The notes under the pieces are model-generated. The model did no database searches. It was not told the DNA's origin and saw only the letters and a program-made list of their open reading frames with translations. Shown one piece after another: positions 3,948-26,922 of a DNA stretch of 64,000 nt (positions are counted from its first letter, which is position 1; each line of letters begins with the position of its first letter). Location of the stretch: assembly GCA_028281325.1 (NCBI GenBank), contig JANQKC010000024.1:79474-143473 (forward strand). The letters are read 5' to 3'. Origin of the DNA: Alphaproteobacteria bacterium (GTDB lineage: Bacteria; Pseudomonadota; Alphaproteobacteria; UBA8366). The translations under genes and the position numbers were made by a program.

Positions 3948-4559
3948 TTACGCGCCCGAGGCGTTCGCCAGCGCGCGGTCGAGGAAGTCGAGCCGGTCCT
4001 GGCCCCAGAACAACTCGCCCTCGAAGACATAGGTCGGCGCGCCGAACACGCCGAGTTCTTCCACCTCGTCGGTGTTGCGCCGGTATTCCGCCACGACCGG
4101 GTCGCTCTTCTCGATGGCGATCAGCTCCGCGCCGTCCATGCCGTTCTCGTCGGCGATCGCCTTGCGGGTTTCCGGCAGCGCCACATTGCGTTCCTCCCAC
4201 CAGATGGCGCGCAGGATCGCATGCGACAGGCGCAGCGCGTCCAGCCCCAGCTGCTGCGCCGCGATCACCGTGTGGCCCGGCGTCTTGTTGTCCTTGGGCG
4301 GGTAGAAGCGTGGCTTCAGGTTCAGCGGCATGCCGAGATGTTTGCTCCAGCGCGCCAGCTCGACGCGGTGATAATCCTGGCGCGGCTGCGGCCTGGTCAG
4401 GATCGGGATGCCCCCGGTCTTCGGCGCGACCTCCTGGAAGTCATACGGCTTGAGGATGATCCGCGCGTGATGCCGCCGCGCGATCTCGACGATACGCGGC
4501 CCGGCGAAATACGCCCAGGGCGAGGAAAGGGAGTAGTAGCAGTCGACGGTGAGGGGCAT
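3948..4559 (-). CDS. 2-hydroxychromene-2-carboxylate isomerase family (DsbA-like thioredoxin fold)
   Basis: MPLTVDCYYSLSSPWAYF N-terminus and C-terminal GAPTYVFEGELFWGQDRLDFL match the family. The longer ORF to 4667 is probably an upstream extension. Confidence 0.7.
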   Translation of the reverse strand: MPLTVDCYYSLSSPWAYFAGPRIVEIARRHHARIILKPYDFQEVAPKTGGIPILTRPQPRQDYHRVELARWSKHLGMPLNLKPRFYPPKDNKTPGHTVIAAQQLGLDALRLSHAILRAIWWEERNVALPETRKAIADENGMDGAELIAIEKSDPVVAEYRRNTDEVEELGVFGAPTYVFEGELFWGQDRLDFLDRALANASGA

Positions 4560-4848
4560 AGTTGATCCGGAATTGGGTGGCGAGGATTTCATGATGGGGA
4601 AAAAGCGAATGAGAGGACAGTCGAATTTATTTGGCGCGCGCATGCGGGACGCCCCGATTACCTGCATCCCATGGCCACAGTTAGATGGTCTCCGGCACGC
4701 TATAATTTCGGCTGGTTGATGGCATTCGACCCAGTGCTTCCGGTGCGGCCATCGATGGCCAATACTCTGTTTACGTGTAAGGCTTTGGGTTTCAACTGGT
4801 TTTGGGCTTCGCTACGGTCACCATCCAAACTCCGCCGGGATTGGTAAA

Positions 4849-5889
4849 TTGAACGAAGAAATAACCGAAACATCACCGACAAGAACATCCAACGACCCGA
4901 TTTGGCCACCGCTGCCAGTCGGTCGAATAGACTGTTACTCTCGCTTGTGGCAACTAGAACTTTGGCTTCGCGAGCTTGTGTATGTGGAACTAAAGTCTCG
5001 ATACGGGGGTCAATGGACGCAGCAGATCGTTGGAGCCAGTATTTATGCCCAAAAGGCTGACAGAAGACTGACACATATGCCAACGCGAGAGCGGAGGCCG
5101 CTAAGTTACATCTCGTTTGATTCCCTGGTCAGGACAATAAGCAGACGTCGGCACCTATTTGCACCTTACCTCCCTATACGTTCGATCTGGGATGCCAAGC
5201 TAGATGAGGTGCGCCAAATCCGGAACCGTGTGGCCCACTTTCGACAGGGAAACGATGGGGATCTTCAGCGCGTCGATCAGCTATTAACTGATATTGACCC
5301 GGGGATTTGGCGCTTTTGCACCTCATACAATGATCATTTCCCAATTCTTCCTCCGAGTCGGGAGAAAGTTATAAAACAATTTATTGAACTGGATCCCTTC
5401 CCGTGGAGTCAGGTAGGTGACGGAGCATGGTCACGTGTCGGTATGGCCAGCCCCGATATGTTGTTAAGTGCGAATATTGAAGTGATTAGGCGACCGTGGC
5501 TTCGAGCGAAGTATCAAGGGCAAGTCGCCGGAAAATACGGATATCTTTTTGATATTAATATTCATGCAAGACAAAACAGGGTTTTCGAATATAAGAATTT
5601 TCTCAAAAACACTACTCATATTCACGATAGATGCTGCCATATTTTGCTCGATTCGTTCGGTACGACGATACGTGCGACATTGCCCTCCGTTTTGGGTGCT
5701 GCACAGATAACGGACACTGTTAACACGCTTATTGAGATGGGTAGGAGTGCGCTTAGACCGTCTCAAACTTTGCTGGAGATAAATAGGGTCGATTCATTAG
5801 CTAAAGACTGGCCCGAGTATGTCCTAGGTCCGGACCACCCGTTCTCTTTTCTCGGCCCAGATATGCCGTGCAAAATTTTCAGCATCTAA
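4849..5889 (+). CDS. HEPN-domain protein (Swt1-like, R-x4-H motif RNRVAH at 5221..5238) with an uncharacterised C-terminal half
   Basis: 346-aa ORF in the low-GC island with TTG start. It carries the canonical HEPN RNase motif R-N-R-V-A-H-F. The start codon is uncertain. Confidence 0.5.
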   Translation: MNEEITETSPTRTSNDPIWPPLPVGRIDCYSRLWQLELWLRELVYVELKSRYGGQWTQQIVGASIYAQKADRRLTHMPTRERRPLSYISFDSLVRTISRRRHLFAPYLPIRSIWDAKLDEVRQIRNRVAHFRQGNDGDLQRVDQLLTDIDPGIWRFCTSYNDHFPILPPSREKVIKQFIELDPFPWSQVGDGAWSRVGMASPDMLLSANIEVIRRPWLRAKYQGQVAGKYGYLFDINIHARQNRVFEYKNFLKNTTHIHDRCCHILLDSFGTTIRATLPSVLGAAQITDTVNTLIEMGRSALRPSQTLLEINRVDSLAKDWPEYVLGPDHPFSFLGPDMPCKIFSI

Positions 5890-6079
5890 GTGAATGCCGA
5901 TGTAATGATCAGCAGGCCGTTTTGGTGCTATTTCACTATGAAAAAATTGAATGCTGTAGCTGACCGAAAATTACGATGTCTTTGATAGTTGTTAGGACAA
6001 AGAAATTGTCTATTTGCAATAAGTTAAGGGTTGAGATGCAGTGTCATCCTGACTTGTATTGACCCGTAGATTCGACTGC

Positions 6080-6559
6080 TCACCTTAGGCCTGCCGCGTC
6101 CAACTGTCGTAGCAACAACGATGCGAGTGCTAGATGATCCAAGCAAGTGTCCGGATCGTCCGTCATTCCACTCGTATGCCCTCTCGGGTTTCGGATGCCC
6201 AGCATTGCGCCTGCGAACAAGAACTTGAAACCCTCTTGTTCATCCTTTTCAGACCTTGTCATCCCTGGATTTAGTGACACTTTTGGCGAACTTCCTCCGA
6301 GGGCGCTCATCATCAACTTGGTACCGTGGCTCGATGCTCCGGAGATACGCTGTATTTCTTCATCAACAAATTTGAAGGCCTCAAAAGTTGCTTGTGCACA
6401 GTGGCCATTATCAAATAGTCGCCTAACATCGTTCGGAAGGTCTGTATGGAGATTTCGCTCGTCAAAGGAATGTGCACTCGAGGGCCTGTCTACTCCCGCT
6501 TCAGTAAAGCGGTGCGCATTTCTTGCGATTCTTTCGAAGTCTTCGAAGTTACTCGCCAT
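6080..6559 (-). CDS. Hypoth_Ymh/TIGR02391-like HEPN protein (R-x4-H motif RNPRGH at 6176..6193)
   Basis: 159-aa ORF with the AMLGIRNPRGH motif. It overlaps the upstream gene by 11 nt, so they form an operon. Low GC. Confidence 0.5.
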   Translation of the reverse strand: MASNFEDFERIARNAHRFTEAGVDRPSSAHSFDERNLHTDLPNDVRRLFDNGHCAQATFEAFKFVDEEIQRISGASSHGTKLMMSALGGSSPKVSLNPGMTRSEKDEQEGFKFLFAGAMLGIRNPRGHTSGMTDDPDTCLDHLALASLLLRQLDAAGLR

Positions 6560-7226
6560 CGATTAGGTTTTTTCGAATACTTCGGAAGATCCTGTCATAT
6601 GTTTTTTGATCACCATCAGCCGGTAGGTTGACCTCTATACGAACAGTAAGTCCCACTCGGTGTTCTGGTTTCTCGGTTGTGCCAGTCGTATCTTTCTTTG
6701 ACTTCACAGATGCTGTGACCCGTTTCTTAGAGGATCTATCCGCACCCTTTTTCGATACCGGCCTGCGCTGATTGGTCTCTCGTGTTATTGGTACTTCCGC
6801 GTGACCTGAAAGTGCAGCGAGGTAGGTGAAAGTCCCAGCCTGTCTGGTTCCAACAATCTCGCTCGAATGATCTGAAGTGCGGAAGAACTGAGCTAAACTC
6901 GATCGATCCATATTCCACGCGTCGTCACCATGTAATTCAAATAGTTCCTCGTAAGCGGTCCGCACAATTTTCTCGAACTCTTTCTGAAACTCCTCGTCCT
7001 TGTGTTGAATGAAAGCGTTCGCGCATTCATCAACCTTCCTGCCTTCCTCATCAACAATGCCGAGGAATTTCAGCACATTGATGACGTAGCTTTCATTCTT
7101 CGGTGCCACGCCAAGCTTGCGAAGGGTTTCAGCTGTCACCTCTTGGGGAAAACTTCGACGCCGAAGGTGGTCGATCGTCTTTACCAGAGGGCCTGCGGAA
7201 GCTACGTACGGATACTTGTTTGCCAT
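6549..7226 (-). CDS. DUF5343-like protein, upstream partner of the HEPN gene
   Basis: N-terminus MANKYPYVASAGPLVKTI...FPQEVTAETLRKLG resembles DUF5343 from memory. The C-terminal half is a Lys/Ser/Thr-rich low-complexity tail. Confidence 0.45.
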   Translation of the reverse strand: MANKYPYVASAGPLVKTIDHLRRRSFPQEVTAETLRKLGVAPKNESYVINVLKFLGIVDEEGRKVDECANAFIQHKDEEFQKEFEKIVRTAYEELFELHGDDAWNMDRSSLAQFFRTSDHSSEIVGTRQAGTFTYLAALSGHAEVPITRETNQRRPVSKKGADRSSKKRVTASVKSKKDTTGTTEKPEHRVGLTVRIEVNLPADGDQKTYDRIFRSIRKNLIDGE

Positions 7227-7619
7227 TATACGCTTCGCCTCTATCTAGCACCCATGCTTCGTGTGTTTAGGCAGCCGAACATAGGTAGTATTGTAACATT
7301 ATAAGATTTACTCTCTTTTTGATTGCATAACTCAATTTTAGGCAGAGTGACAAATCCAATCTACTATTTTTAATGTGTAATCAAAGCTCTATGGACGATA
7401 CGGAAAATTAGTGTTGACGATCAGCATATTTGAATCGATAGAAATCTAATAATTACAATATGTTAATAGTAATTCTTAGTTGTATATTTGCTTATTTATC
7501 GGTCGACCTAGCAGATTTTGAAATCGCATTCTCCGAGATTCTCTGCACTATTTGCAGCGACACCGAATCACTAGAACGCTAAATTTCGCACAACAATAGA
7601 CACTTCTGGGTGGGGAAGA

Positions 7620-24445: not shown

Positions 24446-25183
24446 CGAATTCTCGTTCGCGGCCGCCCTGGCGGTCGTCCGGATTCCCGTTGGACACAGG
24501 GTGCGAAGCGGACAACGCTGGCAGATCGGCGTGTGGTGTCGGCACCGCCGTTGCCCGTGATGCTTCATCAGCGTGTGGTGAACATCGAAGTCGGTCGCCG
24601 TCCAGTCGTCGGGCAGTTGTCGCGTCAGTTGACGCGCCGCGGCCGGGATGGTGGCGTCCGGCGGCACGATCCCCAGCCGCCGGGCCACCCGCAAATGATG
24701 CGTATCGACGACAAGCGCCCGCATTTGCAGTCGGCTGAAGTTCAGCACGGCGGCGCTGACCTTGGCGCCCACGCCGGGCAGGTCCTCAAGCCATGACAAG
24801 GCGTCTTCCACCGGCCAATCCCGGAGGAAATCCAAATCCAGACTGCCGCGGCGGGCATGGATCTGCCGGAGCGCGGCCGGCAGGTGTACCGCTTTCCGTT
24901 CGGCGAACGTGAGCGGTGTCAGGATTGGCGCCAGATCCTCCGGCGTTGCGACGCGAACGGCCTCCCAACTCCGGTACCGCCGGAAAACCGCCTCGAAGAC
25001 ACGCTTCGACACTTCGGTCTGCGTTCGCGTGCCCAAGAGCGCCAAGACGAGCTGGCTCAACGGCGGCGGACGCAACCATGCGGGCGGCGGTCCATAATGA
25101 GTCAACAAGTGCCGATGAATTTCGGCGATCCGCGTCGGCGGTAGGGTCGGCAGCGAGTATTGCATCTCGCCATTTTCGAACAA
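24344..25183 (-). CDS. HhH-GPD base-excision glycosylase (endonuclease III-like) with a Cys cluster
   Basis: LPGVGAKVSAAVL HhH motif and C-x7-C-x2-C-x5-C. The C-terminal tail is low-complexity. Confidence 0.7.
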   Translation of the reverse strand: MFENGEMQYSLPTLPPTRIAEIHRHLLTHYGPPPAWLRPPPLSQLVLALLGTRTQTEVSKRVFEAVFRRYRSWEAVRVATPEDLAPILTPLTFAERKAVHLPAALRQIHARRGSLDLDFLRDWPVEDALSWLEDLPGVGAKVSAAVLNFSRLQMRALVVDTHHLRVARRLGIVPPDATIPAAARQLTRQLPDDWTATDFDVHHTLMKHHGQRRCRHHTPICQRCPLRTLCPTGIRTTARAAANENSLFAGRRARQPGPKFHDEDREDGDPRDGRQAEEK

Positions 25184-25464
25184 AACAAGAACATATCAAG
25201 TGCTCATTGAACCGAATGATCGAAAAATTGCGTGTATTTTCAATATTATACACTCTTATAGATAATTCAAATAAAACACACAAATTATAATTGTTTAAAC
25301 TTATTATTATCATCTTCAGATGGTGAATACATTGGCGAAGCCGGCTGATCGGGTTCCGTGGTGATCATCAAATTCTTCCTTGTTCGCGCTTGATCGGCAC
25401 CGGATGATGGTGCGGTTGGCCGAATCCCGGCGCGTAGAAAATCAGCATTCAGGAGAGAATCGTC

Positions 25465-26922
25465 ATGCCTGCACGTGCGTTCGATGGCGCGGTGACCCTT
25501 GCGTCGGCGATCCGGAACAAGGAAATCGGGTGTCTTGAATTGCTCGATCTCTATCTCGACCGTGTCGAGCGGCATAATCCGGCGCTGAACGCCGTCGTCG
25601 TCATGGACGCCGACTCTGCGCGGAATCGCGCGCGGGAGCTTGATTCGGCGCTCGCTGCCGGAACGGTCATCGGGCCGTTGCACGGGGTGCCGATGACGGT
25701 GAAGGAGTCGTTCGACATCGCCGGCATGCCGACGACCTGGGGGGCACCGTGGCTGAAGGACAACGTCGCGGCGTCGGATGCGTTGGCGGTCGAGCGGTAT
25801 CGATCGGCGGGCGCGGTGATTTTCGGCAAGACGAACGTCCCCTACATGCTGGCGGATTGGCAGACCTATAACGCGGTCTACGGAACGACGAACAATCCCT
25901 GGGATCTGTCGCTCGCACCGGGCGGATCGTCGGGCGGCGGCGCGACGGCAATGGCGGCCGGGCTGAGCGGTTTGGAGACCGGCAGTGATATCGGGGCGTC
26001 GATCCGCAATCCCGCACATTATTGCGGCGTGTTCGGGCACAAGCCGAGCTATGGGATCGCGTCGCCGCGTGGGCATGCCTTGCCGGATACCCTGACGCCT
26101 GCCGATATCTCGGTGATCGGCCCCTTGGCGCGCAGCGCCGAGGATCTTGAGGTGGCGCTTGACGTCATCACCGCCCCCGACCCCTTCGACGCGCCTGGCT
26201 GGCGGATCGACCTGCCGGCGGCGAAGAAGACGCGCCTCGCCGATTTCAAGGTCGGCGTCATGCTGTCCGATCCCAACACCGAGGTGGATGACGAACTGAG
26301 CGAGACGCTGCAGGCATTGGTCGACAGGATCGCCGCCGCAGGCGCGACGGTCAGCGATACCGTGCGTCCGGACATCGATACCCGCCGGTCGCACGCGGTC
26401 TATGTGGCGTTGCTGCGGGCGGCGACCTCGGGCCGGCAGACCGATGAGGAAAAGGCGCGGGCGCGCGAAGCGGTCGCGGGTCTCGATCCCGATGACGACA
26501 GCTACTATGCGCAGTTGATGCGCGCCAACACGATGTCGCACGCCGACTGGCTGTCGGTCCGGGAAGAGCGCAGCCATCTGCGGCTGCGCTGGCAGGAATT
26601 CTTCGGGGACTATGATCTTCTGCTCTGTCCCGCGGCGTCCTCGGCCGCGCAACCGCATGACCACGACGGCGAACGGTATCAGCGCACGATCCGCATCAAC
26701 GGGCATGACGTGCCGACGACTGACCAGTTGTTCTGGGCGGGATATAGCGGCGTGGTCTATCTGCCGTCGACGGTGGCGCCGGCTGGCCTGACGCGGTCGG
26801 GCCTGCCGGCCGGCCTGCAGATCATCGGACCCTATCTCGGCGACCGAACCTGCATCGCGTTCGCGCGCTTGATCGAGGAATCCTTCGGAGGATTCCAGCC
26901 GCCGCCGGATTTCGCGGATTGA
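25465..26922 (+). CDS. Amidase (amidase-signature family)
   Basis: GGSSGG signature and Ser-cisSer-Lys triad context. Confidence 0.85.
   Translation: MPARAFDGAVTLASAIRNKEIGCLELLDLYLDRVERHNPALNAVVVMDADSARNRARELDSALAAGTVIGPLHGVPMTVKESFDIAGMPTTWGAPWLKDNVAASDALAVERYRSAGAVIFGKTNVPYMLADWQTYNAVYGTTNNPWDLSLAPGGSSGGGATAMAAGLSGLETGSDIGASIRNPAHYCGVFGHKPSYGIASPRGHALPDTLTPADISVIGPLARSAEDLEVALDVITAPDPFDAPGWRIDLPAAKKTRLADFKVGVMLSDPNTEVDDELSETLQALVDRIAAAGATVSDTVRPDIDTRRSHAVYVALLRAATSGRQTDEEKARAREAVAGLDPDDDSYYAQLMRANTMSHADWLSVREERSHLRLRWQEFFGDYDLLLCPAASSAAQPHDHDGERYQRTIRINGHDVPTTDQLFWAGYSGVVYLPSTVAPAGLTRSGLPAGLQIIGPYLGDRTCIAFARLIEESFGGFQPPPDFAD

Follow-up and report, generated by a model that had tools for sequence, protein, structure and literature searches.

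Two overlapping genes at positions 6080 to 7226 of the window (the whole 64,000-nucleotide stretch of alphaproteobacterial DNA analysed here) form a compact minus-strand cassette, in which a gene for a DUF5343 protein (gene A) is followed by a gene for a HEPN protein of the Ymh/TIGR02391 type (gene B). The two genes are strictly co-inherited, and the cassette, as judged by sequence comparison, is horizontally mobile between phyla. At a probability of roughly one in two, we read it as a self-contained mobile two-gene module of the toxin–antitoxin-like or abortive-infection kind, in which the DUF5343 protein would gate a HEPN ribonuclease (RNase). HEPN RNases with a co-transcribed regulator were already known, and the DUF5343 half is listed in PADLOC as a predicted candidate; what is new is that DUF5343 is strictly paired with HEPN proteins of the Ymh clade and that the partner protein is built in three parts. 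The pair and its junction are located as follows:

6549..7226, minus strand: cassette gene A, the upstream gene, encoding a 225-amino-acid DUF5343 protein with an ATG start (from the list of open reading frames, ORFs).
6080..6559, minus strand: cassette gene B, encoding a 159-amino-acid Ymh/TIGR02391 HEPN protein with an ATG start, the predicted RNase effector.
6549..6559, minus strand: overlap of A and B (11 nucleotides), with the ATG of B inside the last codons of A.

An overlapping two-gene unit, DUF5343-like and then Ymh-type HEPN, had been proposed in a first-pass annotation of this DNA, and both parts of that description were borne out. The genes are co-directional and share the 11 nucleotides listed above: on the coding strand gene A ends with ...GAT GGC GAG TAA and gene B begins with ATG GCG AGT AAC..., the ATG of B sitting within the conserved terminal (D/N)-G codons of A. 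Both family assignments exceed the curated profile cutoffs, with gene A scoring 54.4 bits for Pfam DUF5343 (PF17278), where the cutoff is 27 (E = 2.1e-14; residues 6-141 aligned to profile positions 1-134 of 140), and gene B scoring 108.3 bits for Pfam Hypoth_Ymh (PF09509; cutoff 25) and 80.7 bits for NCBIfam TIGR02391 (cutoff 39.45). The start codon of gene B is backed by residues 8-15, which are conserved among B homologues, and no clear Shine-Dalgarno sequence was found before it on reading the window sequence. The overlap suggests translational coupling of B to A, and the layout of two small, adjacent, co-directional and overlapping genes, with the presumed antitoxin first, is that of type II toxin–antitoxin pairs.

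Both protein families are large and comparable in size, with 1022 clusters of A relatives (from a search of 5.8 billion proteins) and 848 clusters of B relatives, nearly all of the latter 157-161 amino acids long (these relatives were counted as 90%-identity clusters). The best 120 of the 1022 A relatives were 59-76% identical to the query, of which 99% was covered in all but one case, and the named members among these 120 came from several phyla. A search for more distant relatives with DUF5343 gave 1191 clusters, the best 150 of which had nearly all the same architecture. A scan with one genome per species then provided 80 loci from about ten phyla, at 41-74% identity, with Alpha- and Gammaproteobacteria, Burkholderiales, Actinomycetota, Acidobacteriota, Planctomycetota, Bacteroidota, Nitrospirota, Verrucomicrobiota and Bipolaricaulota among the lineages represented. 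The first-pass annotation had treated the two families as a coupled pair, and a survey of their neighbourhoods agreed with this from both sides. In 79 of the 80 loci the DUF5343 gene is followed directly, and on the same strand, by a Ymh gene, the single exception being a 2.1-kb contig on which the gene is truncated; in the opposite direction, each of four places examined around B homologues had DUF5343 upstream (one of the four copies had not been called as a gene and was found by tblastn, at 61% identity). Because the same order on the same strand recurs in 79 of 80 independent loci, the arrangement is non-random, and it is far beyond chance.

The junction itself is conserved as an overlap of 4-17 nucleotides in 74 of the 79 loci (4 nucleotides in 6 loci, 8 in 29, 11 in 27, 14 in 2 and 17 in 9). 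In three of the five non-overlapping junctions (L075, L076 and L077) the A frame stops about 90 nucleotides early, before the Ymh gene; the tblastn protein match nonetheless reaches the end of A, and these early stops are probably frameshifts, caused by sequencing error or by decay of the copies. Across 63 cassettes, the pairwise distances of A correlate with those of B (r = 0.73). When all ORFs of the 80 loci were clustered all-against-all, only A, B and their antisense shadow ORFs proved to be conserved, and no third gene family accompanies the pair. Four long proteins considered as natural A–B fusions (P0373, P0379, P0242 and P0276) look like frameshift read-throughs or mis-called starts and were set aside.

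The product of gene A is built in three parts, which differ sharply in conservation:

6789..7226, minus strand: residues 1-146 of A, a winged-helix subdomain and a helical bundle (mean pairwise identity 50%; predicted local distance difference test score, pLDDT, 83-95).
6657..6788, minus strand: residues 147-190 of A, the basic linker, disordered and of low complexity (mean pairwise identity 14%).
6549..6656, minus strand: residues 191-225 of A and the stop codon, a nearly invariant C-terminal motif (mean pairwise identity 75%).

The structured N-terminal domain and the basic stretch that the first-pass annotation had described for this protein were both recovered, but the stretch that it had taken for a tail is a linker. 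It is 39-60 amino acids long among the relatives, carries a net charge of +2 to +12, is rich in A, K, S and P, and has pLDDT below 50 at residues 148-188; it is best regarded as a tether, since a 35-residue, nearly invariant motif follows it. This motif, VGLTVRIEVNLPAxGDQxTYDxIFxSIRKNL, consists of an extended segment and then a helix, which the AlphaFold 2 model places at residues 207-222 (pLDDT 72-83). Neither the motif nor the low-G+C 3-kb insertion, its second HEPN gene and the link to PDC-M34, all taken up below, had figured in the first-pass annotation. The N-terminal domain probably binds nucleic acid or another conserved ligand. With its winged-helix domain, its disordered linker of constrained length and charge and its conserved C-terminal motif, A may be laid out like those antitoxins in which a DNA-binding domain is joined to a disordered segment that contacts the toxin. 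A Foldseek search of A against the PDB gave nothing significant, and sequence searches of the PDB gave nothing meaningful for A, for B or for a neighbouring 346-amino-acid protein described below. The fold of winged helix and helical bundle was accompanied by no nucleotidyltransferase match in Pfam, NCBIfam or PADLOC, and by no AbiJ-NTD or AbiTii match in Pfam at E<=1.

For gene B, the nuclease motif that had been noted in the downstream protein is present and intact as RNPRGH:

6176..6193, minus strand: HEPN catalytic motif R123-N-P-R-G-H128 (Rx4H), located by translation, following helix 102-121 in the model.

Among 55 B homologues R123, N124, R126 and H128 are invariant and P125 is nearly so; in the 63 cassettes each of the residues R123-R126 and H128 is retained in 97% or more. 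E107, Q108 and G110 are conserved like the residues of the catalytic motif. The AlphaFold model (pLDDT 81) is all-alpha, with helices at 54-73, 79-87, 102-121 and 136-155 after an extra N-terminal helix. This is the four-helix up-and-down bundle of HEPN domains, and the conserved Rx4-6H motif follows its third core helix; a PDB search gave no sequence-level match of B to solved HEPN structures. In the passages of Anantharaman et al. 2013 (PMC3710099) that treat it, Ymh is a HEPN family with Rx4-6H that occurs solo or fused to AbiJ-NTD1, AbiTii or paraMORC, often near restriction-modification (R-M) systems, and solo HEPN proteins with this motif are described there as toxins in toxin–antitoxin and abortive-infection systems. 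RNase activity of B is thus a well-grounded prediction.

In the window the cassette lies within a small island, shared with a second HEPN gene:

4560..7615, no strand: low-G+C insertion of 3.06 kb between divergent DsbA-family and GMC-oxidoreductase genes, carrying the cassette and one HEPN gene.
4849..5889, plus strand: Swt1-family HEPN protein of 346 amino acids (RNRVAH motif), encoded convergently to the pair and separate from the cassette.

The G+C content of the insertion is 45-51%, against 60-69% in the flanks, and it is the sole strong low-G+C stretch of the 64 kb. In L089, a related genome whose flanks are about 90% identical at the nucleotide level, only 153 nucleotides separate the DsbA-family and GMC-oxidoreductase genes (L089 7844..7996), and homology with the window ends at 4559 and resumes at 7616, so that 4560..7615 represents an insertion or replacement of 3.06 kb. 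The whole 153-nucleotide spacer of L089 is replaced in the window by the low-G+C DNA. No terminal repeats, integrase, tRNA-like sequence or Rfam RNA were found in 4560..7615. The longest ORF of the DsbA-family gene (3948..4667, minus strand, 239 amino acids) extends beyond 4559, where both the L089 homology and a 203-amino-acid gene call end; the 36 extra N-terminal codons are probably untranslated, because they run into inserted DNA.

The same compositional contrast was seen across the locus set, in which the G+C content of the cassette is a median 7 points below that of its flanks (the deficit exceeds 5 points in 46 of 72 loci, and in none is the cassette more than 5 points above its flanks). 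Cassette neighbours are heterogeneous and mostly housekeeping genes, such as those for aconitase, ribonucleotide reductase and peptidases, and the surroundings of three gene-called loci are wholly of this kind. A minority of neighbours are R-M components, other PADLOC candidates, ParE (twice), IS200 and a TrwC relaxase; one cassette adjoins a type I R-M system and one adjoins BrnTA. By a raw count, an estimated ten or so of 135 nearest neighbours match PADLOC models (R-M components, PDC-S02, PDC-S70, PDC-M37B and DolB), the rest of the nameable ones in this set being mostly housekeeping genes. Relatives of A were absent from 72,556 plasmids, 50,697 phage genomes and 2.9 million IMG/VR viral contigs.

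Regulatory signals were sought upstream of gene A:

7227..7615, minus strand: AT-rich upstream region, 389 non-coding nucleotides of about 36% G+C, probably containing a promoter and ribosome-binding site.

A putative ribosome-binding site of A (GAGG) lies 11-14 nucleotides before the ATG. A consensus scan called no minus-strand sigma-70 promoter upstream of A, and its promoter and terminator counts were no higher than in shuffled controls; a TATAAT at about 7299-7304 was seen by eye and was not called by the scan. Several short imperfect inverted and direct repeats are present in the region (for example, arms at 7438-7459 and 7466-7487). In a comparison of 130 nucleotides upstream of A from 70 cassettes, which has limited power, no shared operator was found, and only the Shine-Dalgarno sequence was common. 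A GGTGCTACGATT motif occurs in about 11-14 of the 70 loci, about 25-35 nucleotides before the DUF5343 start (L036, L038, L039, L044, L047 and L048 included); the loci inspected are annotated as Acidobacteriota, and the motif, which looks like an extended -10 promoter element, is absent in other lineages. The putative recognition helix of the helix-turn-helix in A is invariant, and its invariance in the face of no co-transferred operator argues mildly against autorepression and mildly for some other conserved ligand.

The two halves of the cassette match different defence-related entries in PADLOC, where PDC-M34 is the nearest catalogued system. Gene A matches the PADLOC profile PDC-M34A (PDLC04589) at E = 6.5e-27, with residues 1-221 aligned to profile positions 1-207 of 208, and B has no match to the PDC-M34B profiles at E<=1. 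The PDC set comprises 145 candidates that 'guilt-by-embedding' picked out within BREX, DISARM and type I R-M loci, and PDC-M34 is a predicted candidate within it (cassette CAS_00130, FAM_01148>>FAM_01657, 97 instances; bioRxiv 10.1101/2024.01.29.577857, Payne et al.). Shared with the cassette described here are the two-gene format, the DUF5343-type first gene and what appears to be a small HEPN second gene, given that PDC-M34B matches a Swt1-like HEPN protein; the coupled HEPN here, however, belongs to the Ymh/TIGR02391 clade, and the only PDC-M34B-like gene in the window is separate, longer and convergent. Gene B matches positions 136-263 of 270 of the PD-Lambda-3_B profile (E = 1.6e-16), which is the C-terminal part of the PD-Lambda-3 B protein, and also matches Aga_HEPN in PADLOC. 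PD-lambda-3 is an Escherichia coli abortive-infection system (Vassallo et al. 2022, PMC9519451) for which this mode of action has been shown experimentally (PMC13190303), and it is listed with a PD-(D/E)XK nuclease domain (PMC10952713). By contrast, B lacks the N-terminal half of the profile (about 135 positions), there is no PD-(D/E)XK domain in the island, and neither A nor the 346-amino-acid neighbour matches the PD-lambda-3 profiles at E<=1.

Under the reading that we favour, A and B would be made from one mRNA, A first, with translation of B coupled through the 11-nucleotide overlap, and both proteins would thereby appear together. Free B would cut RNA and stop growth, and the tethered C-terminal peptide of A, possibly together with the N-terminal domain, would contact the HEPN protein and hold it inactive. 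A trigger such as phage infection might then remove, titrate or re-shape A, upon which the RNase would be released and the infected cell arrested. By analogy, a role in defence is favoured by the match of A to PDC-M34A, by the match of B to part of PD-Lambda-3 B and by the cassettes that stand beside type I R-M, BrnTA or ParE genes; that a second HEPN gene shares the island in the window points the same way. Several observations weigh against this reading. Neighbouring genes are mostly housekeeping, which ties the cassette at most weakly to defence islands, and addiction or defence modules would not usually be missing from plasmid, phage and viral-contig sets, as this one is. A exceeds B in size and is conserved to about the same degree, which is atypical of fast-evolving antitoxins, and the missing upstream operator, set against an invariant putative recognition helix, speaks weakly against an autoregulated type II antitoxin of the textbook kind. 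In addition, neither DUF5343 nor PDC-M34 has a main-text mention in the literature searched, and PDC-M34 is a prediction only.

Some of these observations bear equally on the first alternative, a classical type II addiction or stress module in which A is an autorepressing winged-helix antitoxin degraded by host proteases, B is an RNase toxin and phage play no part. We regard this as unlikely. A small, overlapping operon with the antitoxin first, a solitary insertion among housekeeping genes in many genomes, other toxin–antitoxin genes nearby (ParE twice, and BrnTA) and an A protein with a winged-helix domain and a disordered region are all what such a module would present. Against it stand the lack of a shared operator in 70 cassettes despite the invariant helix-turn-helix, absence from the plasmid collection, where addiction modules are common, and the conservation of A to the same degree as B; moreover, A has its match in a defence candidate, and B has its own in part of a component of a demonstrated abortive-infection system.

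The missing operator can also be turned towards a second alternative, in which A is an activating or targeting subunit whose winged helix and basic linker bring the HEPN protein to a specific nucleic acid, and B alone is inactive or harmless. A highly conserved N-terminal domain that lacks a conserved operator suggests a ligand other than its own promoter, the linker carries a positive charge throughout, and the fixed stoichiometry that translational coupling would give would suit an obligate complex. This option nevertheless seems improbable: solo Rx4-6H HEPN proteins are described as toxins in the HEPN passages of PMC3710099, and the antitoxin-first order and low-G+C mobility fit a selfish toxic module better.

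A pairing of a housekeeping regulator with an RNA-processing enzyme, with no role in conflict, is very improbable. The position of many cassettes between metabolic genes would suit it, as would the existence of HEPN families that are non-catalytic regulators, such as MtlR (named among the HEPN families in PMC3710099), but the distribution is patchy across phyla, with 41-76% identity between distant ones, the G+C content lies below that of the flanks, the insertion site is empty in a close relative of the host, and the catalytic Rx4H is intact and invariant.

The second HEPN gene of the island was considered as a possible third member of the system. Its product falls below the cutoff of Pfam HEPN_Swt1 (E = 5.5e-4) and matches PADLOC PDC-M34B (E = 2.9e-12) through its residues 29-148. 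Its homologues carry the annotation of Swt1-family HEPN proteins; most have about 330-370 amino acids, and most cover 90% or more of the ORF. Examples lie in a prophage, flanked by its terminase and portal genes, and in an AbiE/AbiV island of Mesorhizobium, in neither case with DUF5343 nearby, and the family is absent from all 80 other cassette loci. A three-gene island, in which the DUF5343 gene and the Swt1-like HEPN gene at 4849..5889 constitute PDC-M34 and Ymh is an accessory, was rejected because of this absence, even though A matches PDC-M34A, the 346-amino-acid protein matches PDC-M34B and the two lie one gene apart in the same 3-kb insertion; the homologues in the prophage and the AbiE/AbiV island do without DUF5343, the gene is convergent and not co-transcribed with the pair, and the protein is about 150 amino acids longer than the PDC-M34B profiles (147-192 positions). 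The 346-amino-acid gene is therefore best viewed as a stand-alone HEPN element of one gene, located in the same small island as the cassette. An automated search for defence systems would probably report PDC-M34 here by joining the DUF5343 gene to this unrelated Swt1-like HEPN gene, which on this evidence would merge two apparently separate modules.

In HEPN–MNT (type VII) toxin–antitoxin systems, a minimal nucleotidyltransferase (MNT) partner AMPylates the HEPN toxin. The present cassette departs from these (HepT–MntA, for example Shewanella SO_3166/SO_3165), and from RnlA–RnlB and LsoA–LsoB, in that its partner protein, neither a nucleotidyltransferase nor RnlB-like, is of the DUF5343 winged-helix type and carries a conserved peptide on a tether. 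It also differs from the type IV AbiEi/AbiEii pair, in which the toxin is a nucleotidyltransferase, the likeness of A to AbiEi being confined to the generic winged-helix fold. Parallels are also offered by the AbiJ-NTD1–Ymh, AbiTii–Ymh and paraMORC–Ymh fusions, in which a variable sensor or adaptor module is joined to an RNase of the same HEPN family (PF09509; Ymh passages of PMC3710099) and which are found in R-M neighbourhoods, as some cassettes here adjoin type I R-M genes. In the cassette, however, the adaptor is a separate, translationally coupled DUF5343 polypeptide, and DUF5343 does not appear in those passages.

HEPN RNases serve as effectors in CRISPR type III and VI, abortive-infection and toxin–antitoxin systems, and for each family a central question is how it is kept silent and then triggered. 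A broader proposal, which we put forward only speculatively and consider unlikely as a whole, is that DUF5343 is a dedicated and interchangeable class of partner for HEPN RNases of at least two unrelated clades (Ymh here, Swt1-like in PDC-M34), the winged helix sensing a conserved nucleic acid or ligand rather than its own promoter, the linker acting as a tether and the C-terminal peptide as a universal latch. If true, this would be a previously unrecognised form of HEPN regulation, distinct from MNT-type, RnlB-type and cyclic-oligoadenylate control. The cassette is abundant (about a thousand 90%-identity clusters per protein, in about ten phyla) and compact at 1.15 kb, and a C-terminal peptide that acted as the HEPN latch would make it a minimal model of HEPN regulation and a small, portable, switchable RNase module.

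Two minor observations concern the 346-amino-acid neighbour and one the window as a whole. The recorded gene call for the neighbour is 270 amino acids long and begins at Met77 (L001 3240..4052); this start is probably too late, because homologues cover most of the long ORF and the match to the HEPN profile sets in at residue 29; translation may instead begin with the TTG at 4849. The C-terminal domain of the same protein (about 200 amino acids) is without annotation. Apart from the insertion, the sole compositional irregularity in the window is a modest dip in G+C content at 25001..26000, to 57% against about 64%.

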